This document shows positions 102 to 64,000 of a DNA stretch of 64,000 bases, piece after piece. The first letter of the stretch is position 1; each line of letters opens with the position of its first letter. The notes below the pieces were generated by a model that made no database searches, was not told the origin of the DNA, and saw nothing but the letters and a program-made list of their open reading frames with translations. The translations under genes and the position numbers were made by a program. The stretch is from Escherichia phage KEP4: sequence record PP047754. One strand, given 5' to 3'.

Positions 102-158
102 AGTGTTCCCTCCCTTCCATGCAACTAACTTTACTACAATTATTTATTGAATAAAGCG

Positions 159-3713: not shown

Positions 3714-4904
3714 ATGGCCGATTTCCTGAGTCAATATACAGGTCAGCAGATAGATCAGATATTGGGTTCTGTTGACGACAAAGTAAGTAAAAATGACGTT
3801 ATTAACGATTTTGAAGTTAACGACCCATTGTTTCCACCATCTGCTCGCCTGACATATGAGTTGAAAAGATCTGTTGACACAATCAATGATACTCTGGCCA
3901 ACAAAGTTATTCGTACAGATAGTGGTGAACAAACAATCAATGGCAAAAAGACTTTCAATGCGTTGTTGGTGACCAATGGGGGCATACAAGTCCCCGCCGG
4001 AAAATCCGTTTCAATCACAGATGAACCAACGAACTCGACAGATGGTGTTAACCTGAGCATGTTGAGAAAGCATGGCGTCAGTGAAGACACTACCCCGCCT
4101 GGTTCTGGTTTGGCTGGGGAGTTGTTGACATCCGGATATTACAAATTCAATTTGGATTTCACCAGATTGTCTGCGTATACCGGACCAACGTTGCCGACTT
4201 CAGTTCCTGTACAGACAGATTCTGGAGCGCGTTATTGGACAATGACTGCATTTTTTGATGCGTTGTTTGCAGACAACCGATTTAATGGATATGTGACAAC
4301 GACAGCGTATGACGCAGATATGCTGAGTCTAGAGTCTCAAATTAATAACATCAACACGTCGTTGAACGGGAAAGTCAACACCTCGACTTACAACACTAAG
4401 ATGGCGTCGTTGGATTTGAGTATCTCCAATATCAACACGTCTCTGGGTAATAAAGTCGAGGTCAGCACATATAATACGAAGATGACTTCCTTGGACGGCA
4501 GTATCAGTTCTCTCACGACTGGTAAGGTCGATGTATCAACGTATAATGCCAAAATGACCACAATTGATAACAGTTTAGGGAACGCAGTTTATCGCACAAA
4601 AACAAACTTGTCGTCATACACGGTTTCGGCTTCGGGAACGACGGCTCTTCCAGATTTTGATTTGGTGAACCTTTGTCAAATACTGGTAACTGCGCAATGG
4701 GGGACAGGTAACGTTGTTGACACATATCGAGTAACCATAACTCGTGACGGAACGATCAAATCAGAGTTGTTGGTTCAGAAAAGTACGAGTGGTACAGTGA
4801 CGTTCACAGGGTCTGTGGTGGGCGGTAAATTGAGAATTTCCGTTGTTAATGCGAATACAACAACTGCTTGTTCTGTCGATTATTCTATTGCAGCTTCTTT
4901 CTAA
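3714..4904 (+). CDS. tail fibre-like protein with tandem 27-aa repeats
   Basis: 396 aa; N-terminal KVIRTDSGEQTINGKKTFN fibre-type motif; central repeats NINTSLNGKV-TSTYNTKM-SLD. Confidence 0.6.
   Translation: MADFLSQYTGQQIDQILGSVDDKVSKNDVINDFEVNDPLFPPSARLTYELKRSVDTINDTLANKVIRTDSGEQTINGKKTFNALLVTNGGIQVPAGKSVSITDEPTNSTDGVNLSMLRKHGVSEDTTPPGSGLAGELLTSGYYKFNLDFTRLSAYTGPTLPTSVPVQTDSGARYWTMTAFFDALFADNRFNGYVTTTAYDADMLSLESQINNINTSLNGKVNTSTYNTKMASLDLSISNINTSLGNKVEVSTYNTKMTSLDGSISSLTTGKVDVSTYNAKMTTIDNSLGNAVYRTKTNLSSYTVSASGTTALPDFDLVNLCQILVTAQWGTGNVVDTYRVTITRDGTIKSELLVQKSTSGTVTFTGSVVGGKLRISVVNANTTTACSVDYSIAASF
4347..4580 (+). repeat. two full and one partial 81-bp in-frame tandem repeats inside the fibre gene
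   Basis: units start at 4347 and 4428 (aacatcaacacgtc / aatatcaacacgtc); third unit degenerate. Confidence 0.6.
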
Positions 4905-4909
4905 AACTA

Positions 4910-4946
4910 AATACCCCTAGATGACATGAATACATTTAGGGGTATT
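4910..4946 (+). promoter_or_regulatory. hairpin fused to late-promoter box (CTAAATACCCC at 4907-4917); 10-bp stem aataccccta/taggggtatt
   Basis: perfect inverted repeat 4910-4919 / 4937-4946; right-arm GGGG lies 8 nt before ATG 4951. Confidence 0.6.
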
Positions 4947-4950
4947 ACAA

Positions 4951-7900
4951 ATGGCCAACAAACCAACACAGCCTCTTTTCCCTTTGGGTTTAGAAACTTC
5001 TGAGTCTTCGAACATAAAAGGCTTCAACAACTCCGGCACTATTGAGCATTCCCCTGGTGCCGTAATGACATTTCCTGAAGATACTGAAGTTACAGGTCTT
5101 CCATCTTCTGTGCGTTACAATCCTGATAGTGATGAATTTGAAGGTTATTACGAAAACGGTGGTTGGTTGTCTTTGGGTGGCGGCGGAATACGCTGGGAAA
5201 CGCTCCCTTACGCTCCCTCTAGCAATTTGTTAGAAGGTCGCGGCTATCTCATTAATAATACGACAGGGACTTCTACAGTGGTTCTCCCTTCCCCTACGCG
5301 CGTTGGTGATTCAGTTACAATTTGTGATGCCTATGGGAAATTCGCGACGTATCCATTGACTGTATCTCCAGCGGGAAATAACCTGTACGGCTCCACCGAA
5401 GATATGACGATATCCACCGATAACGTGTCGGCGACTTTCACTTGGTCTGGTGCCGAGCAGGGTTGGGTTGTTACATCTGGTGTTGGCCTCGGCCAAGGTC
5501 GTGTGTACAGTCGTGAGATTTTCACTCAAATTTTAGCATCTGAAACAAGTGCTGTCACTCTCAATACTCCACCAACAATCGTGGACGTGTATGCTGACGG
5601 AAAACGTCTTGCGGAATCCAAATATTCACTAGATGGGAATGTAATCACTTTCGACCCTTCTTTACCTGCCAGCACTGAATTGCAGGTAATAGAATATACT
5701 CCGATTCAGTTGGGCACTGGCGGCGGGGGTTCGGGCGCTTCTGCAATCACCTGGATTTACAATGGCGGATCCGCTATTGGTGGCGAAACCGAAATAACGC
5801 TAGATATCGTTGTAGATGATGTTCCGGCTATTGATATAAACGGGTCTCGTCAGTACAAAAATCTTGGATTCACGTTCGACCCATTGACGAGTAAAATCAC
5901 TCTGACGCAAGAACTGGAACCAGAAGATGAAGTTGTTGTGGTTATAAATGGGACACCAAACATTTATAACCAAATCGATCGTTCTTTACAGGAAGTTGCT
6001 CGCGCCTACAATTTTACAAATGCTCAAGTTATTTTGAGCAACGATTATACTTCTGTTCTGGATAATAAAGTCGTTATTTATGATACGACATCCCAACGTT
6101 CTTGGGGGATTCCATCTGGAATCCCAGCAGGTTCTACAGTGGTTTCCGTCAATGGGGATCAACTGAAGTACAAAAATGGATCAACTGAAACCACTGTTAC
6201 ATTGGTGAGTGTACCAGGTAGTGCAGAGAAATTGAAGAACGATCTGGCTTCAAACTCTGGTTCAGGTATGTTGAAAACTTCTAGAGGTGATACCGTAGAA
6301 GAAGAATTGACTTTCATTAATCAGAATATGGTCGTTCAAATTTCAGATTTCGCGAGTCTTAGAACTTTAGTGCCAGCCACAGCGGGTATCCGAGTCAAAT
6401 TGAAAGGTTATTATTCTGGTTCTGAAATCGGTGGCGGAGAATTCATTTCTGTCGCTGGAGATGCTGTTGATGATGCTGGGATGATTGCTCGAGTGTCAAG
6501 CAGCTTCTATTGGAAGAGAATTATCGACAAACACATTACTCCTGGCATGTATGGCATCAAAGGGAATCTTCCAGAAGATCCGGCAGTGAAACTGAACGCT
6601 ATGTTTACGGCTGCGGCTGCGGCTAACGCTTATGTCTTACTGAACGATGTCGACACTCTGGTCTGTAAAAGCCCTGTCGTGATTCCAGCACATTCATTAG
6701 TGTACGGCAACAAACGAACTATACTGAAACGTGATGCATCGTTGTCATATGCTAATGATTTCTTGACAATTATGAATGATTCATATGTCAAGGGGATCTA
6801 TGTTGATGGTAGCCGTTTAGATTCTCAGACTCCTCTAGAAGCAGTTTTGGTGCGTATCGCTGGGAATGTAACTATCCATAAGAGTGAGATCCGAAACAAT
6901 GCTGGCTATGGCGTTGTTGGTAACGCAGTCCCTGGTATTCGTATCACCAAGAACATTTTTTCCAACTTCGCCAAAGGTTGTGTAGCCATGTTTGGCGACG
7001 GAACAGCGACGAGTGATGATCTGCAAATTAATGATAACAGATTCTTTAACCTGGGCGCGGGAACCATTTATGTTGGCGGTTACTCAAACTTCCTTGTCGA
7101 CAAAAACGTCGGAAGAGGCACTTACGTGGGTTCTCCAGGAAACCGTCTGTATGTTGTGACCAATACTAACGGGACTATCACCCAAAGCGCTGGGCCAGAT
7201 TTTGGGCCATTGAAAACGGGTATGTTCTTTGTATTGCCTGGTGGTTCTGAACATATGATAACGGCGGTCAACAGCCTTACCAGTGTGACAGTAACCCCAC
7301 CACCGCCGTCGAACGCCACAGTTCGTGCAATCGCAGGGACAGGGGATCTTCTGGGCATCCAATCATGCTCCTACGGCACCATCAGCCGTAACAACCTGAC
7401 CGATTGCGTGACTTACGGAACTGGTGGAGGCACGATGGAGGGGAGCACTCTGGGTTGCAATTATGTCACTTGGGAAGACAACTTCATCCGCAACACAGGT
7501 AAGAACGGAATCAACGTCGGGCAATCAGGCGCTGGGGTTGCCACGTGTTCTATCCTGAGGAACACTCTGATACAGGTTGGTAACGGCGGTCAGGGTGTTG
7601 GCCCAGCGTATCTTCTGCCTTGGTTCGATACGCTAGGTATCGCTCTGTATCAGGGAAACCCAGGTTATATGGCGAATATGGACGTCAGTGATAACAACGT
7701 CTCTACATGGTCTGGCGATCTGAATGACGGCGCTGCTTGGTTTGGTATGAGCGGTTGTACGGAAGCCACTGTGACTTGTACAGGCAACAAATCTTCTGGT
7801 TATTCCGACGGCTATGTTCGTGGAGATATATTAGAAGTCACGTTGACAGGTTATGGTACAGGGGCGGCTGCGACTTCATTCGTTAGTGATGGTGAGTCTA

Positions 7901-47160: not shown

Positions 47161-47188
47161 ACAGAGGCTATAATGGCCTCTGTTTTTG
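47161..47188 (+). terminator. rho-independent terminator (acagaggc-tataat-ggcctctgt + TTTTTG)
   Basis: 8-9-bp stem, U-tract. Confidence 0.8.
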
Positions 47189-47206
47189 TATTCTAGAGAG
47201 GATACC

Positions 47207-48433
47207 ATGAAAGATAAACCGTGTGACATTCCTTATTGCGGTGTTCGGGAAGCTAAAATTAAATCTGCACATCCCATGTTAAGCCCATTCCATAAACAAC
47301 TCGCATACGAATGGATGAGCGAGCGCTATAAGATCCACGTGAGAAAGGACGTCCAGCGTCTTCCTGCTCCTTGGACGGATAATCCCATACTACGGCAGGT
47401 CAAGTTCTGTAACGTCCGGAGAGAGCACGACAGGCAGTCTCTTAACCTGATCAATAATATCGTCAAGAACGACGCTCTGAGCATGGCCGACAAAATGTTC
47501 AACTGTGTTCTGTTCCGCATGTTCAATCTCTGGGATCCGATCAAGGTGGCGCTCGAGGGCGCTATGACGATTTCAGACTTTGCTAAAATCAACCTGGACG
47601 AGACCCGCGCCCGTCTTCAGAAGTTTGAATCTGAAGGTGGTAAGATCTTCACCAACGCATTCAACACAGGCGGTCTAAAACAATGTCTGGCGTTCCCCGA
47701 ACTTGTTGTCAACCACAAGGAGCAGCGCTTCGGTGGCATGATGGTTAAGGTACACCGTGTTGGCCAGGGTGTCGTGGATGAATTGGATTACAAGGTCGCC
47801 AAGAAGCTGGTTGAAGAGAATCCTGGGGAGTACACCATTGAGGGTTGGGAGCCGTACATGCCAATGCGTGTCATCCGCTCTTTGAAGGCATTCGTCAACA
47901 AGTACCCCGATTACTTCAATGATCTTTTACGTCTTGACTCTCCGCTGAAAGTTTACCAGCGCATGTATGATGACATTGAAGGGCTTGGGCCATTCCTGGC
48001 ATATCAGATCTGGGTGGACTTCACATACATCCCTGAGTATCCATTCAGTGAGAATCATTTCACTATTGCTGGTCCAGGTTGCCGTGCGGGTATTGACCTG
48101 ATGTTCCTGGATAAGGACGGCATGACTCATGAAGAATGCATATTCTGGGTTCGTGATCATCAGTATCAATTGTTTGCTCAGTATGGTTATGTCCAAGAGC
48201 AGTTCTGGTCAGCCGAAGCGCCGGAAGATCAGTGCATGAACGTCATGCAGCTGGAGAACATGTTCTGTGAATTGAGCAAGTACACCCGCTGTGTTGAGGC
48301 TATCGAGAGAGGGGAAAAGCCACGCGGCAAGGTCGGTTATGATGGAGGCGGGAGATACAAAAATCGATGCGATGAAATTGTCCTCAATCGCGGATCGGTC
48401 AATTTATTAGATCGTTTGAAGAAACCTGAATAA
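47207..48433 (+). CDS. hypothetical protein (408 aa); speculative DNA/nucleotide-modification enzyme
   Basis: GAGAGG SD; Cys/His-rich N-terminus (CDIPYCG, KFCNVRREHD); no Walker motif; function not assignable by eye. Confidence 0.55.
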   Translation: MKDKPCDIPYCGVREAKIKSAHPMLSPFHKQLAYEWMSERYKIHVRKDVQRLPAPWTDNPILRQVKFCNVRREHDRQSLNLINNIVKNDALSMADKMFNCVLFRMFNLWDPIKVALEGAMTISDFAKINLDETRARLQKFESEGGKIFTNAFNTGGLKQCLAFPELVVNHKEQRFGGMMVKVHRVGQGVVDELDYKVAKKLVEENPGEYTIEGWEPYMPMRVIRSLKAFVNKYPDYFNDLLRLDSPLKVYQRMYDDIEGLGPFLAYQIWVDFTYIPEYPFSENHFTIAGPGCRAGIDLMFLDKDGMTHEECIFWVRDHQYQLFAQYGYVQEQFWSAEAPEDQCMNVMQLENMFCELSKYTRCVEAIERGEKPRGKVGYDGGGRYKNRCDEIVLNRGSVNLLDRLKKPE

Positions 48434-59662: not shown

Positions 59663-59950
59663 ATGTCCGGCGTATGGTGTGATGTATTATTAGTGAGATT
59701 TTCAAATGGGATGGATAACCAGATTATTTCATTCTTTTATCCTGTTCCCTTTTCTTCTATGGGTCTGACTGTCAAGCGCGTTCTTGACATAGAAGAAAAC
59801 CTCAACGCTATGCCGTATATGGCGCGACCACACGTGCTGGGTTGTGAACTGTTAAACGAAATGATGATTGATGAGAATCTTGTTGAAACAATTATCACGC
59901 GTGAACAGATGAAAACCATACTGGCTCAGGGAGAACCCCATGTCGAATAA
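59663..59950 (+). CDS. hypothetical protein (95 aa)
   Basis: GGAGG SD 6 nt before ATG 59663. Confidence 0.5.
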   Translation: MSGVWCDVLLVRFSNGMDNQIISFFYPVPFSSMGLTVKRVLDIEENLNAMPYMARPHVLGCELLNEMMIDENLVETIITREQMKTILAQGEPHVE

Positions 59951-60260
59951 ACCGTTTGAACTTAAATTTCGCGTTTGGCATATTCCCCAGGTTCCTGGGA
60001 TCGCTTTTCATGTTGAGGTTCCAACATTTGAAGAAGCGCAGCGCCTGAAGAATGCTCTGGGTGATTATGATTTGTTCCAGTTCAACAACAATATCAAGCC
60101 GGATTATTGCAATGCTTCGGGCATTCAGATTTATCAACATGATCTGACCGATGATGATCTTAATGATATGGGTCTGGATGATCGTTGGGTTGATATGGAA
60201 GATGTTGACGAACTCAACGATTATTTCGAGCATCTGCGCAGTACAGGGTGGGAAATATGA
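59940..60260 (+). CDS. hypothetical acidic protein (106 aa)
   Basis: GGGAGA SD; Asp-rich C-terminal half. Confidence 0.5.
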   Translation: MSNKPFELKFRVWHIPQVPGIAFHVEVPTFEEAQRLKNALGDYDLFQFNNNIKPDYCNASGIQIYQHDLTDDDLNDMGLDDRWVDMEDVDELNDYFEHLRSTGWEI

Positions 60261-60565
60261 TTTCAAAATATATTGTAAAGCCTGGGGATACTCTGTCCAG
60301 GATCGCTCTAAAATTATATGGTGATGCCCAACAGTATATCAAATTAGCCAGATTCAACAATATCCAAAACCCAGGCCATATCACGGTTGGTCAGATTATT
60401 TGTTTACCCACACCTGTCGAAGACAAAGAACACATTATGATTCCGGTTCAACCGACTCAGAAGTGTTTGGATGCGATAGCTGGTTTATTTCGGCCAGGTT
60501 TTTGTGATGGAACTATTGAACGTCACATTTATCAAGCGATTGTGGAAAACGCAGGTGTAAAATGA
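60257..60565 (+). CDS. LysM-domain (peptidoglycan-binding) protein
   Basis: YIVKPGDTLSRIALKLYGDAQQYIKLARFNNIQNPGHITVGQIICLP is a canonical LysM motif; ATGA overlap with upstream gene. Confidence 0.65.
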   Translation: MISKYIVKPGDTLSRIALKLYGDAQQYIKLARFNNIQNPGHITVGQIICLPTPVEDKEHIMIPVQPTQKCLDAIAGLFRPGFCDGTIERHIYQAIVENAGVK

Positions 60566-60771
60566 TCGGATTAATTCGTTACCTGTTCATATTCGTAATT
60601 TCAACATTCATTTTATTTTTCTTTTTCAAATACTTGAAAGAGACTAAAATCTACCGAAGTAAACGTTGGCGCAAACGGGTGAGGGTAACTTTCCTGCTGC
60701 TGATTTCTTCGGTTACAATAACCGCACTCACATTGGGTGCATATATCTACATTTTTGAAGGGGTACATTGA
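60562..60771 (+). CDS. small membrane protein with two TM helices (69 aa); holin-like topology
   Basis: two hydrophobic segments separated by KETKIYRSKRWRKRVR; ATGA overlap. Confidence 0.45.
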   Translation: MIGLIRYLFIFVISTFILFFFFKYLKETKIYRSKRWRKRVRVTFLLLISSVTITALTLGAYIYIFEGVH

Positions 60772-61562
60772 TGTTCAAGAAATTGGTGTTCGGTGCAATT
60801 ATGGTTCTGGCTGCAAGTCTACTTTCTGGTTGTGGCGGCGTTATCGATGAAGGTAATGTCGGCGTTCGCACCCAATGGGGTGAAGTAGACATGAACCCTG
60901 TAACAGCGGGGATCTACACCAGCTTTGTTTCAAGCGTGGATGTTTACACGACCAAAGAAGCCGTTGTGAGTCTGACTAAAATGACGCCAAAGGCCAAAGA
61001 CAACCTGACTCTGGAAGACTTGGATGTGGATGTTTATTACACACCCAATGTCGCAAAGGTTCCGTGGTTCCATACCAAATTTGCTGGCCAGAGCGCCGAA
61101 CTCGATGATGGCACGATAGCGGTGGGTTTCAATCTAGTTAAAACTGCTGCAGCATCTTCTTCGATGGACGCCGTTTCTTCTCTTGATTCTATGACAATTC
61201 ACACCCAACGTGCTGAATTAGAGAAGATGATTAAAGACCGCACTCAGCAACAATTAGAGACTGCTGCGCCTGGCATGTTCACAATCACACGCGTGTTGGT
61301 CAAAAAGGCGCTGACGGATCCTTCTATTGAGCAGTCTATCCGTGATAATGTTATGGCGGACAAACGATTGGATACGGCAAGAAAGAACGTTGAAATTCGC
61401 GAGCAAGAAGCCCAAGCGAACCAGAAACTGACCACTTCGCTGACGCCTGAATATCTTCAACATGAATATAACATGGTATTACAATCATGTGCCAATAGTG
61501 GAAAATGTACTCTGATCGTTGACGGATCCGGCTCAGGTAAAATGCTGAACGTCGGCAAATAA
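60771..61562 (+). CDS. lipoprotein with SPFH/band-7-like domain, tentative
   Basis: signal plus lipobox MVLAASLLSGC; GNVGVRTQWGEV resembles the SPFH domain start; GAAGGGG SD. Confidence 0.5.
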   Translation: MFKKLVFGAIMVLAASLLSGCGGVIDEGNVGVRTQWGEVDMNPVTAGIYTSFVSSVDVYTTKEAVVSLTKMTPKAKDNLTLEDLDVDVYYTPNVAKVPWFHTKFAGQSAELDDGTIAVGFNLVKTAAASSSMDAVSSLDSMTIHTQRAELEKMIKDRTQQQLETAAPGMFTITRVLVKKALTDPSIEQSIRDNVMADKRLDTARKNVEIREQEAQANQKLTTSLTPEYLQHEYNMVLQSCANSGKCTLIVDGSGSGKMLNVGK

Positions 61563-61645
61563 ACGCTTTATTCAATAATATTTGTTAGGTAAGCTGTAGT
61601 CCTCTTGTAGTGAAACATTGTAAACAACTAACTGGAGTAATCCGA

Positions 61646-61924
61646 ATGAACCGTACTGATTTTATCGCTCACATCGCCCAGACTCAGGGTATGACCAAAG
61701 GCGAAGCAGAGAAGATCGTGGCATCCTTTATCAACGGCGTAAAAACTGCAGTCGCAGCTGGCCAATCTGTCCAATTCGTCGGCTTTGGCGCGTTTGAAGT
61801 TAAACATCAGGAAGCGCGCACTGGCCGCAACCCGCTGAACGGGCAAGCGATTCAGATCGAAGCGAAAAATGTTGTTAAATTCAAAGTCGGTGAAGGTCTG
61901 AAAGCTGCTGCCAACGGCCAGTAA
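61646..61924 (+). CDS. HU/IHF-family histone-like DNA-binding protein
   Basis: MNRTDFIAHIAQTQGMTKGEAEKIV...FGAFEVKHQEARTGRNPLNGQAIQIEAKNVVKFKVG is a canonical HU fold signature; GGAG SD. Confidence 0.8.
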   Translation: MNRTDFIAHIAQTQGMTKGEAEKIVASFINGVKTAVAAGQSVQFVGFGAFEVKHQEARTGRNPLNGQAIQIEAKNVVKFKVGEGLKAAANGQ

Positions 61925-61973
61925 TCACATCCAGAGCGGTCGTGCCTAGCACAGCGTGTTAGGCTAAAAGAGA

Positions 61974-62002
61974 AAGCCGAGGTTAATGCCTCGGCTTTTT
62001 CG
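61974..62002 (+). terminator. rho-independent terminator (aagccgagg-ttaatg-cctcggctt + TTTTCG)
   Basis: 9-bp stem plus U-tract after the HU gene. Confidence 0.85.
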
Positions 62003-62049
62003 TTGTTGGAATTCGGGTAAACTATAACAGAACCCAAAGGAGGAACAAC

Positions 62050-63771
62050 GTGACAGCATTTAATCAATACCGAAAGGCGATTGACGCCATAGGCCGTAAG
62101 GTTCCTATAGAAGAAATACAAAGCCTTGCCAAAAACGAATTTCCATATGACAAGGCGAACCAAGGCCAGATGGAATGTATCGTCGAAGCCGTTGATGCCT
62201 TGGTCAACAAAAAGGTCAAACACGTGATCATTGAAGCCCCAACTGGCGTGGGGAAATCTTTGATTGGGACAACAATTCATAAAGTGATTCGCCATTTGGT
62301 TTTACAGGCCGATCCTTATGGGCAATTCCGCACGTCTATCAGTACGCCTACCAAAGGTCTACAAGATCAGTATGCTGCTGAAAAGGCGGTAGCGATAGAC
62401 ATCCTGAAAGGCAAGAAGAACTATCGTTGCCACGTACACCCAGATGTGTATTACAACGCTGTGCAATGCCGTATAGCATGCCGCGACGGGCATTGTAGCA
62501 AACGCCGTTGTCCTTATGTACAGGCGCGTAATTTGTGGACGGATATTTCATCATTGCGTTGTACTAATGCTGCCATGATGATCGAAATGTGTACAACCAT
62601 CTGCATGAAGCCCGAAAACCGTTCCGATATGCTGATCCTTGACGAGTGCCATAAAATGCCCTCTACGCTCCTAGAGCACACGATCATGGAATACAATACA
62701 AAGGCCGTGGAGGGGCTGCGTTCTATCCCTGAGGGCAAGGAGATCGTCTCTACCATTGGTGATATCGTAGAACGTACCAAGGACTATGTCCTGGGCAAGT
62801 TATATTCTTTGTCTGGTGAACTACATTCAATGTTTGAAGACCTCCATCTCAAAGTAGAAAATTTGTTGGAAGTTCTTGAAGAATTGGTCGAAGATGATCG
62901 CTTGAGTGAAAGCCAAGTGATGAAACTCGCCGACATTATAGATGTCTTGCATAACTTGAGTGATTATTGTGGTATTATGTCACAAACCCAAGCAAGTACA
63001 TTTATTGTGCAAGATAAGGGGGAAGATTTTATCCGGTTTAAACCTGTTATGCCTTCTGATGTAAGCGAATTCGGGTTATTCCGAAAAGCCGATTATCACG
63101 TTCATATGTCAGCAACGATCTGTGGTATAGATTCGTATGCTCGTTCATTGGGTATTCGACAGGGGGATTATCATTCCATTCAGATCGGCAATCCTATCCC
63201 AATTGAAAACAGAAAAGTCAACTATATGCCCATAGTGAAGATGACTAACAATATGGGCGACTATGAAATGAAAAGGTTGACGGAATATATTGATGAAATA
63301 ATCGCGTTCCACCCAGGTCAGTCCGGCATTATCCATACAGTGAGTTATGATCGCGCCTTGGCAATACAAAAATTCAGCAAATATCAGAATTTTATCCATG
63401 TTCCGCGTACCCGAAAGGCGTTGATGGATATTATGGAAAATGCTTTTAGAACAAAGTCCCCATGCGTCATTGCCAGTCCGGCTATGGAAGAAGGTTATGA
63501 TTTCAAAGGGGATTACAGCCGTTTCCAAATACTGATCAAAGTCCCTTATGATTATCTGGGCGATCCACTGATAGCACATATCAATTCAGTGGATCCGTCG
63601 GCATATTTCCGCAATGCAGTACTGCGCATTGTTCAAATGTGTGGACGTTCGGTCAGGGGTGTTGATGACTGGGCTGCGACATACATCATTGATTCATCCT
63701 TTGAATCTCTTATGATGCGCAACCCAGAATTCTTCCCAACCTGGTTCACCGATGCAGTGTTTGAGGTTTAA
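62050..63771 (+). CDS. DinG/Rad3(XPD)-family Fe-S helicase
   Basis: GTG start with AAAGGAGG SD; Walker A APTGVGKS, DEAH-type LDECH, Cys cluster (CHVHPD...CRIACRDGHCSKRRC), motif VI QMCGRSVRG. Confidence 0.75.
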   Translation: MTAFNQYRKAIDAIGRKVPIEEIQSLAKNEFPYDKANQGQMECIVEAVDALVNKKVKHVIIEAPTGVGKSLIGTTIHKVIRHLVLQADPYGQFRTSISTPTKGLQDQYAAEKAVAIDILKGKKNYRCHVHPDVYYNAVQCRIACRDGHCSKRRCPYVQARNLWTDISSLRCTNAAMMIEMCTTICMKPENRSDMLILDECHKMPSTLLEHTIMEYNTKAVEGLRSIPEGKEIVSTIGDIVERTKDYVLGKLYSLSGELHSMFEDLHLKVENLLEVLEELVEDDRLSESQVMKLADIIDVLHNLSDYCGIMSQTQASTFIVQDKGEDFIRFKPVMPSDVSEFGLFRKADYHVHMSATICGIDSYARSLGIRQGDYHSIQIGNPIPIENRKVNYMPIVKMTNNMGDYEMKRLTEYIDEIIAFHPGQSGIIHTVSYDRALAIQKFSKYQNFIHVPRTRKALMDIMENAFRTKSPCVIASPAMEEGYDFKGDYSRFQILIKVPYDYLGDPLIAHINSVDPSAYFRNAVLRIVQMCGRSVRGVDDWAATYIIDSSFESLMMRNPEFFPTWFTDAVFEV

Positions 63772-63998
63772 TAACCCGCAATAAACGATAAATGGCACTT
63801 GATATTTGGTTCAAGTGTCGTTATCGTGATAATCATATTGTCCACATCTTGGCTGAAAGATATATTTGCGATCGGTTTGGTTTGAACATGATTATACAGG
63901 CTATAAATCAGATCTTCACCACGATAACCGATTTTGCCATCAGTGTCCTGCCAATGACCGAGGGTAGACTCTCGAGCGTGTACTCGGAATTCGACCAT
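63768..63998 (-). CDS. hypothetical protein (76 aa or longer), convergent with the helicase; may extend beyond the window
   Basis: minus-strand ORF with ATG at 63998, 2 nt from the window end. Confidence 0.35.
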   Translation of the reverse strand: MVEFRVHARESTLGHWQDTDGKIGYRGEDLIYSLYNHVQTKPIANISFSQDVDNMIITITTLEPNIKCHLSFIAGY

Positions 63999-64000
63999 AT

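Follow-up and report, generated by a model that had tools for sequence, protein, structure and literature searches.

An HU-family gene and an adjacent XPD/Rad3/DinG-type helicase gene, probably transcribed separately, in Escherichia phage KEP4

The 64,000-nucleotide stretch of Escherichia phage KEP4 DNA analysed here (sequence record PP047754; hereafter the window) carries toward one end two genes whose best overall explanation, held at a probability of about 70%, is a separately transcribed unit for an HU-family protein followed by the gene of an accessory helicase of the XPD/Rad3/DinG type. The window belongs to a Kuttervirus with 97% identity to the Salmonella phages PMBT18 and Det7, and both genes, which lie exactly where the original prediction placed them, are ordinary core genes of the Vi01-like (Ackermannviridae) Salmonella phages; conserved in no fewer than four genera, HU and helicase are listed with the conserved proteins of the Ackermannviridae (PMC10892097). 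Their annotation is known: in public records the first gene is hup or DNA-binding protein and the second dinG or DNA helicase, with the terminator marked as well, and hundreds of public phage genomes already label both genes. The significance of the pair beyond its correct annotation is little.

Transcription of the HU and helicase genes

The features of the HU gene and of the spacer that follows it are:

61563..61612, + strand: near-invariant block GCTTTATTCAATAAtatTTGTTAGGTAAGCTGTAGTCCTCTTGTAGT upstream of HU, from a four-genus comparison
61634..61637, + strand: HU Shine-Dalgarno GGAG, read from the sequence; GGAGTAATCC is invariant in four genera
61646..61924, + strand: gene of the HU-family DNA-bending protein, ATG at 61646, stop at 61924, 92 aa
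61944..61964, + strand: first hairpin past the HU stop, 9-bp stem and 3-nt loop, poorly conserved between genera
61970..62007, + strand: intrinsic terminator of the HU unit, stem GCCGAGGU / GCCUCGGC, loop UAAU, tail UUUUUCGUUGUU
62007..62027, + strand: conserved motif TGGAATTCGGGTAAACTATAA, past the terminator and ahead of the helicase ribosome-binding site
62037..62043, + strand: helicase Shine-Dalgarno AAGGAGG, from the sequence; conserved

The HU unit would be monocistronic, consisting of the conserved upstream block, the Shine-Dalgarno sequence, the 92-codon HU gene and the intrinsic terminator. The upstream block is nearly identical across four Ackermannviridae genera, even where the gene upstream of it differs, and is probably the promoter or a regulatory region of the HU transcription unit. 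A generic sigma-70 scan of positions 60500-64000 returned sites no more numerous than in shuffled sequence, and inspection of the block by eye gave spacings that misfit both a MotA-box and a T4 late promoter. Nor does the upstream motif behave as a repeated phage promoter, as only two exact copies of CGCTTTATTCAATAA were found in the window and Det7. No transcriptome of a Kuttervirus or other Ackermannviridae phage was found in the literature.

The spacer between HU and the helicase folds at -47.6 kcal/mol (z = -5.4), a value equaled by none of 200 shuffles. Its GC-rich terminator hairpin, at 61970-62001, leads directly into UUUUUCGUUGUU, and pairing is kept in Klebsiella phage Magnus, Dickeya phage Coodle and Serratia phage phiMAM1 despite changes on both sides of the stem, with compensatory changes at three core stem pairs (alignment columns 77/91, 78/90 and 79/89). 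The site thus has the GC-rich stem-loop, the U-tract and the compensatory changes of an intrinsic terminator; the Magnus record annotates it as 'terminator', and in Marshall, Menlow and Mutine, too, the matching stretch carries a terminator feature. The proposal that HU has a terminator of its own is in this way borne out by a stable hairpin, a U-tract and compensatory change over four genera. Because an A-tract lies before it, the terminator could be active on the minus strand as well.

Beyond the terminator, the conserved motif that precedes the helicase is invariant in four of four genera at the positions TGG.A.TCGGG....CTA.A, and may be the promoter of the helicase gene or an operator. It is single-copy in the window, and a repeated promoter was rejected on that count. 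With a stable conserved terminator between the two genes and a conserved block before each of them, separate transcription of HU and helicase is the best explanation of the arrangement as read from sequence.

The HU protein and its relation to TF1

Domain searches uphold the assignment of the first gene to the HU/IHF fold. The protein matches Pfam PF00216 (Bac_DNA_binding) over profile positions 1-90 of 90 with E 1.1e-29, scoring 103 bits against a cut-off of 22.4, and PHROG 379 with E 5e-37; among PDB entries the HU chains give E values of 3e-19 to 1e-14, and TF1 gives 7e-12. Residues G46, F47, G48, R58, G60, N62, P63, F79 and K80 are invariant, and the hallmarks GFG, R58, R61, N62 and P63 are all retained. 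At the level of NCBIfam equivalogs the protein falls below each cut-off, with 75.8 vs 111 bits for IHF-alpha, 66.2 vs 162 for HU-alpha, 65.8 vs 157 for HU-beta and 66.1 vs 115 for IHF-beta. It is at least 95% identical in 170 phage records, and homologues are present in 524. Bacterial HU proteins (E. coli HU-alpha/beta, Bacillus HBsu) are likewise single-domain proteins of ~90 aa with the same GFG, R58, R61, N62 and P63; the phage protein differs from them in being phage-encoded and in having Q55 in place of R55. By analogy with the family, HU would dimerize and use its beta-arms, tipped by P63 between R58 and R61, to kink DNA and wrap it irrespective of sequence. It would serve as an architectural factor when phage DNA is replicated, recombined or condensed, or in late transcription.

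A more specialized function is suggested by SPO1 TF1, also a phage-encoded HU homologue from a phage with an hmU-type base. In this reading the KEP4 protein would be specialized for the phage's own hydroxymethyl-dU-derived hypermodified DNA, preferring modified DNA and controlling phage transcription and replication in the manner of TF1. The modification machinery is indeed encoded: the window gene at 47186-48433 is a 5-hmdU DNA kinase (Pfam HMUDK_hel, 1.5e-83), Det7 also encodes an amino acid:DNA transferase and a PLP enzyme, and phages of the ViI type carry 5-NeOmdU (PMC5889632, PMC8989533). The very strong conservation of the HU protein and the label 'transcription factor 1' borne by the gene in some records point the same way. 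However, when the comparison with TF1-type proteins called for by the original prediction was run, the phage protein proved closer to generic HU. B. anthracis HU scores 72 bits and E. coli HU-alpha has 41% identity, against 48.7 bits and 38% for TF1 (38.5% over 91 aa, a value reproduced against the SPO1 genome). The residues that set TF1 apart are missing as well: R61 stands where TF1 has F61, and the C-terminal extension is lacking, HU ending at residue 92 vs 99 in TF1. Moreover, HU homologues occur in many phages without known hmU, such as BcepMu, SPbeta and 0305phi8-36, and the papers on hypermodification mention neither HU nor TF1. A TF1-type specialization thus appears unlikely.

Quite unlikely is the broader proposal that both genes are adaptations to hypermodified phage DNA, with HU as the TF1 analogue and a helicase with a minimal Fe-S domain replacing T4 Dda. 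If it were true, HU would prefer 5-hmdU or 5-NeOmdU DNA and thereby distinguish phage from host DNA, and the DinG-like protein would be an accessory helicase able to act on hypermodified DNA.

The helicase and its cysteine cluster

The second gene and the features that bear on its assignment are:

62050..63771, + strand: gene of an XPD/Rad3/DinG-family SF2 helicase, GTG start at 62050, 573 aa
62236..62259, + strand: Walker A / motif I APTGVGKS, aa 63-70; G66, G68 and K69 invariant
62428..62511, + strand: compact four-Cys (putative 4Fe-4S) segment, aa 127-154, C127-x12-C140-x8-C149-x4-C154-P-Y
62641..62652, + strand: motif II DECH, aa 198-201; D198, E199 and H201 invariant, position 200 C or A

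The length of 573 aa and the Walker A motif were correctly predicted; motif II was expected to be DEAH and is instead DECH, with C and A alternating in the family. The SF2 motifs Q, I (GxGKS/T), Ia, II (DExH), III (SAT) and VI (QxxGRxxR) are all present, and motifs I, Ia, II, III and VI are invariant; residues that are invariant or nearly so include Q40, G66/G68/K69, L104/Q105/Q107, D198/E199/H201, S354-A-T356 and Q529/G532/R533/R536. Pfam returns Helicase_C_2 at 6.9e-12 together with ResIII and DEAD, and the protein matches PHROG 2488 'DNA helicase' over its full length with E 2.3e-265. PHROG 2488, which groups Rad3-related helicases from large tailed viruses (T4-like, Vibrio, Rhizobium and haloarchaeal), is evidently its own family: length, motifs and Cys4 pattern agree, and nothing substantive differs; an experimentally characterized member was not found in the searches made. 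Literature on Ackermannviridae HU or helicase, or on phage Fe-S DinG proteins, yielded nothing specific.

The predicted structure leads to the same family. The AlphaFold model (pLDDT 91.9, pTM 0.90) has as its best Foldseek match DinG 6fwr (E 6.5e-24, TM 0.67), followed by XPD and CasDinG, all of them full-length matches with probability 1.00, and a profile search of the PDB leads to DinG of F. magna (1.7e-20) and of E. coli (3.7e-17) as well as to XPD/Rad3. A helical insertion at approximately aa 215-345 of the model corresponds to the Arch domain, so that the four-domain fold, with the Arch insertion in HD1 and a Helicase_C_2-type HD2, is present in the predicted structure. E. coli DinG (6fwr/6fws) and XPD/Rad3 have the same SF2 fold, with HD1, a Helicase_C_2-type HD2, the Arch insertion and a Cys4 group between motifs Ia and II, but identity to the phage-encoded protein with its DECH motif is only 14-18%, and E. 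coli DinG has 716 aa vs 573. The protein also lies far below the NCBIfam equivalog cut-offs for DinG (NF008729, 59.2 vs 598 bits) and YoaA (NF053712, 53.6 vs 680).

The cysteine-rich stretch contains five cysteines, of which C127, C140, C149 and C154 are invariant in 119/119 homologues and in a set of 71/71 sequences, whereas C144 is lineage-specific. In 130 distant representatives (~28-49% identity) C127 is kept in 130, C140 in 109, C149 in 127 and C154 in 129. The conservation on which the Fe-S prediction depended is thus found, and with DinG and XPD as the top structural matches the Rad3/DinG-type call stands. The four cysteines, in an insertion of HD1 that lies between motif Ia and motif II, fit an iron-sulfur cluster, and from their conservation C127, C140, C149 and C154, not C144, are the likely ligands. 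That they hold zinc or are purely structural, rather than binding 4Fe-4S, seems very unlikely, even though zinc and Fe-S sites are indistinguishable from sequence alone and the segment is unusually short (28 residues vs 86 in E. coli DinG). Some family members, CasDinG and S. aureus DinG, have lost the cluster; both are among the fold matches, and this also speaks for the rival reading. Yet the cysteines occupy the XPD/DinG ligand region between motifs Ia and II, and C127, C149 and C154 fall in the same alignment columns as DinG C120, C199 and C205, with a C-P-Y/F signature found in Rad3 as well; C140 lies four residues off the DinG C194 column in the profile alignment.

By analogy with DinG and XPD, HD1 and HD2 would hydrolyse ATP and drive movement on single-stranded DNA, presumably 5'-3'. 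In this reading, the DNA strand would thread between the Arch insertion and the very small Fe-S domain, in which a 4Fe-4S cluster putatively carried by C127, C140, C149 and C154 would form the unwinding wedge. Forks, flaps, D-loops or R-loops would be the expected substrates.

Gene order and the role of the helicase

The helicase gene ends against a neighbor on the opposite strand:

63768..64000, - strand: 3' end of a convergent, conserved ORF, 255 aa in Det7 (gp61), truncated by the window end

This ORF shares 4 nt with the helicase stop codon and belongs to PHROG 3833, of unknown function; Pfam and PADLOC gave no match to it, and it is a neighbor that is not shown to be part of a system with the helicase. 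The convergent arrangement is the same in Magnus, Coodle and phiMAM1. Gene order in Det7 and phiMAM1 is HU, helicase, minus-strand ORF, RNase H, gp55, gp47, gp46, and the same order is followed in Magnus to gp55 and in Coodle to RNase H, where the stretches compared end.

Such constancy might suggest that HU and helicase work as a pair, in which HU would bend or mark the DNA and so load the helicase or stimulate it, and that adjacency is under selection, since the two genes stay together in Kuttervirus, Taipeivirus, Limestonevirus and Miltonvirus. Whole-genome synteny is high in the Ackermannviridae in any case (PMC10791037), and between the genes lie the conserved terminator and, separate from it, the conserved block upstream of the helicase. 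Vibrio phage 1.244.A keeps the helicase-RNase H synteny with HU not nearby, and an HU-family neighbor occurs at none of six more distant homologue loci. Given the terminator, and distant homologues that lie in T4-like modules without HU, adjacency carries no evidence of HU-helicase coupling, and a pairing of this kind merits little credence. A conserved partner of any other kind was also sought and rejected, as the neighbors of the distant homologues vary and a DUF2828/vWA-like gene precedes the helicase at one locus only.

The distant homologues lie in replication modules: at one locus in the order pol B, UvsX, gp41-like gene, helicase, at another with topoisomerase II, at two with RNase H and at a further one with ligase and ribonucleotide reductase. 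The family is broad: it forms 1,011 clusters at 50% identity (E<=1e-30) and is matched in 497 phage records, among them viruses of Vibrio, of Rhizobium and of haloarchaea, so that the helicase is not lineage-specific as originally suggested. Most likely it works as a 5'-3' accessory enzyme in recombination-dependent replication and repair of the T4 type. Membership in a CRISPR type IV-like (CasDinG) or other defense or counter-defense system is extremely improbable: although PADLOC PDLC01439 'typeIV_DinG, CAS-IV-A associated' is the best named profile match outside the PHROGs (E 9.7e-50, 168 bits, nearly full length) and CasDinG (Csf4) structures with their shared DinG-like fold occur among the fold matches, the core Csf4 models score just 14-25 bits, the annotated neighborhood is without csf genes, with no Csf partners or array nearby, homologues lie in replication modules of lytic T4-like phages, and the phage helicase retains the four cysteines that CasDinG, with a vestigial Fe-S domain, presumably lacks. 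Lipoprotein, HU, RNase H and gp55 are the neighbors at the HU-helicase locus.

Det7 has gp41-like and UvsW-like helicases, and no Dda homologue was found in its genome (tblastn best E 0.47, phmmer best 0.12). On the basis of this one absence in one genome, the DinG-type helicase may take the place that Dda occupies in T4 as the 5'-3' accessory enzyme. Dda, an SF1B 5'-3' accessory helicase, is unrelated to it in fold and superfamily and would at most share its job in T4-type replication and recombination.

In this widespread family of phage helicases, it appears, the putative Fe-S segment is unusually compact. The HU protein of an hmdU-modifying phage is an obvious candidate for TF1-like behavior, and the absence of Dda from the Kuttervirus Det7 offers a testable idea for what the helicase may do.

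The HU protein and its expression signals

The HU gene and the DinG/XPD-type helicase gene that follows it both lie where the original prediction had placed them. Their arrangement was compared among four Ackermannviridae genera, represented by Kuttervirus, Klebsiella phage Magnus (Taipeivirus), Dickeya phage Coodle (Limestonevirus) and Serratia phage phiMAM1 (Miltonvirus).

61563-61612, plus strand: ~50-nt block ahead of HU, almost invariant in the four genera
61646 (ATG) to 61924 (stop), plus strand: HU gene, 92 aa, GGAG 8 nt before the start
61970-62001, plus strand: intrinsic-terminator hairpin, second in the spacer, continuing into UUUUUCGUUGUU
62007-62027, plus strand: 21-nt motif TGGAATTCGGGTAAACTATAA separating the HU terminator from the helicase ribosome-binding site, core invariant in the four genera
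62050 (GTG) to 63771 (stop), plus strand: helicase gene, 573 aa, AAGGAGG before the start
63768-64000, minus strand: convergent ORF of 255 aa running past the window end (L001:11279-12046 in the Salmonella phage Det7 genome), PHROG 3833, unknown function

The protein is a canonical HU/IHF-fold protein as proposed: it covers the whole Pfam Bac_DNA_binding profile (E 1.1e-29, 103 bits), matches PHROG 379, and finds bacterial HU proteins as its top single-domain matches among solved structures (3e-19 to 1e-14), with the IHF subunits and SPO1 TF1 (7e-12) scoring weaker. Homologues aligned down to 38% identity all keep the GFG motif, R58, G60, N62, P63 (the intercalating proline) and F79/K80. Since it scores below all the NCBIfam orthologue cut-offs (HU-alpha, HU-beta, IHF-alpha and IHF-beta), the protein is a member of a phage clade within the HU family and not a copied host gene; identity to E. 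coli HU-alpha is 41%. Phage-encoded HU is not unusual: homologues occur in 524 phage records, with SPO1, SPbeta, 0305phi8-36 and Mu-like phages of Burkholderia among them. The Kuttervirus form is strongly conserved (170 records at least 95% identical). A second "histone family DNA-binding" gene, Det7 gp156 (L010:5560-6063 of that genome, minus strand, outside the window; 167 aa, PHROG 4164, no Pfam match), neighbors topoisomerase II and rIIB genes, so that these phages carry two candidate nucleoid-type proteins.

It is conceivable that the HU protein is adapted, in the manner of TF1, to the modified DNA of the phage, given the following gene:

47186-48433, plus strand: 5-hmdU DNA kinase, Pfam HMUDK_hel 1.5e-83

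This gene shows the phage to belong to the thymidine-hypermodifying group; Det7 further encodes an amino acid:DNA transferase and a PLP enzyme, and 5-NeOmdU is present in ViI-type phages (PMC5889632). In sequence the protein resembles HU more than TF1, with R61 where TF1 has F61 and without the TF1 C-terminal tail, and the tests made support no such preference; identity to TF1 is 38%, and 38.5% when repeated against the SPO1 genome. Judging from the Det7 counterpart, which encodes 406 aa, the TTG start that the ORF finder assigns to the kinase probably lies too far upstream.

The 125-nt spacer 3' of HU folds into two hairpins (-47.6 kcal/mol, z = -5.4), and the claim that HU has its own terminator is borne out by the core stem of the second, which reads GCCGAGG/CCTCGGC in the window, GCCGGGG/CCCCGGC in Magnus, GCCGGAG/CTCCGGC in Coodle and CCCCGG/CCGGGG in phiMAM1; at three stem pairs both sides are altered with pairing kept across the four genera. 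The block upstream of HU is more conserved than the surrounding coding DNA and persists even behind a different upstream gene. Its first 17 nt, AACGCTTTATTCAATAA, contain the palindrome TTATTCAATAA and recur in one further exact copy (142-158, minus strand) upstream of a small membrane-protein-like minus-strand ORF. TGGAATTCGGGTAAACTATAA occurs once within the window and could be a candidate promoter or operator, e.g. for the RegA-like translational repressor of the phage; no promoter class fits either conserved element in the promoter scan and motif-copy searches. Together the terminator and the two conserved upstream blocks argue that HU is likely its own expression unit, with separate signals serving the helicase. 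A literature search for transcript data found none. Just upstream of HU lie three plus-strand genes: 59940-60260 encodes a superinfection-exclusion protein resembling P22 gp17 (Pfam GP17, 6e-52), 60248-60565 a small protein with a LysM domain, and 60768-61562 a lipoprotein of the SPFH/Band 7 type.

The helicase and its cysteine cluster

Assignment of the 573-aa protein to the Rad3/DinG type is well supported. It matches PHROG 2488 "DNA helicase" over its full length (2e-265) and Pfam Helicase_C_2, ResIII and DEAD; matches to NCBIfam DinG, YoaA and Rad3 are weak and far below the orthologue cut-offs. A confident AlphaFold model (pLDDT 91.9, pTM 0.90, 71 homologues as input) has E. coli DinG as its best PDB match (E 6.5e-24, TM 0.67), followed by Finegoldia DinG, archaeal XPD, CasDinG and TFIIH XPD, with RecQ and UvrB far weaker, and the family profile detects DinG, XPD/Rad3, FANCJ and Chl1 by sequence. 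SF2 motifs are invariant across homologues, although motif II is DECH in this protein and not DEAH as first read, its third position being C or A elsewhere in the family. The family is large, with 5,512 cluster representatives under a cut-off of E<=1e-3 and 1,011 under one of E<=1e-30, and 497 phage records match, among them Ackermannviridae, Vibrio, Rhizobium and jumbo phages and haloarchaeal tailed viruses, part of them annotated "Rad3-related DNA helicase". Neither this gene nor HU is lineage-specific, contrary to the functions originally suggested. The top PADLOC match is the "type IV-A associated DinG" profile (168 bits; core Csf4 profiles 14-25 bits); as csf genes are absent nearby and the four cysteines are retained, this match does not mark the protein as a CRISPR component.

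Five cysteines, rather than four, lie between motifs Ia and II. C127, C140, C149 and C154 are present in 119/119 homologues (32-98% identity), whereas C144 is found in only 36. Among 130 representatives of 50%-identity clusters (~28-49% identity) C127 is kept in all, C149 in 127, C154 in 129 and C140 in 109, the alignment being noisy at this last position. Profile alignment sets C127 on DinG C120, C149 on C199 and C154, within a C-P-Y/F signature common to Rad3, on C205; C140 falls four residues off C194. The segment spans 28 residues as compared with 86 in E. coli DinG, and thus appears to be an unusually compact version. Because the four cysteines are conserved, the objection that the cluster might be absent from homologues falls away, and they are best taken as a putative Fe-S cluster.

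Synteny, existing annotation and possible role

All four genera share the gene order HU, helicase, convergent ORF, RNase H, which continues with gp55, gp47 and gp46 in Det7 and phiMAM1. The convergent ORF, without Pfam or PADLOC match, has a 4-nt overlap with the helicase stop codon, and the convergent arrangement recurs in each of the four. Vibrio phage 1.244.A retains the helicase and RNase H part with no HU near the helicase, and at six more distant loci HU never adjoins the helicase. Family synteny, and not a functional pairing, is therefore the best reading of this adjacency. Neighbors at the distant loci are other replication or nucleotide-metabolism genes, e.g. pol B, UvsX and gp41-like; topoisomerase II; ligase and ribonucleotide reductase; or RNase H. 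The Vibrio relative has a minus-strand ORF between helicase and RNase H, similar in length to the convergent ORF. At one distant locus (L002, a 262-kb contig of GCA_902725575.1) a DUF2828/DUF7788 gene (4557-6008) overlaps the helicase gene start (6001-7614) in a region flanked by IS605-type OrfB/TnpB genes, a pairing not seen at the other distant loci.

The 2.5 kb around the two genes are 97% identical to the Salmonella phages PMBT18, SF02, pertopsoe and Det7 of genus Kuttervirus, and 232 of the 237 matching phage records cover most of this query. HU is labelled there "DNA binding protein", "HU_IHF DNA binding domain protein", "hup" or "transcription factor 1", and the helicase "DNA helicase", "ATP-dependent helicase" or "dinG"; the phiMAM1 record likens the latter to the "putative ATP-dependent DNA helicase DinG" of a Dickeya phage. 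A terminator is annotated between the two genes in Magnus and within the matching region of Marshall, Menlow and Mutine, and a table of conserved Ackermannviridae proteins places "putative ATP-dependent helicase" beside "putative DNA binding protein" (PMC10892097). Both genes and the terminator are thus present in public annotation already. The original observation is confirmed, and its interpretation is supported after minor corrections on three points (motif II, the cysteine count and lineage specificity). Kuttervirus sequence also turns up in two records named for unrelated hosts, which are probably mislabelled or contaminated entries: the 7.9-kb OR844945.1 "Enterococcus phage Efm 3-10" (DNA 96.5% identical across the HU-helicase region, HU 100%) and MN871475.1 "Pseudomonas phage Pa-sanjiao" (HU 98.9% identical).

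A survey of the complete Det7 genome yields gp41-like, UvsW-like (Pfam UvsW_N) and DinG-like helicases and no homolog of Dda, the T4 SF1B accessory helicase (tblastn best E 0.47; phmmer best E 0.12). XPD/DinG enzymes translocate 5'-3', as does Dda. By analogy, the DinG-like helicase may therefore fill the accessory role of Dda, in which it would act at forks and recombination intermediates.
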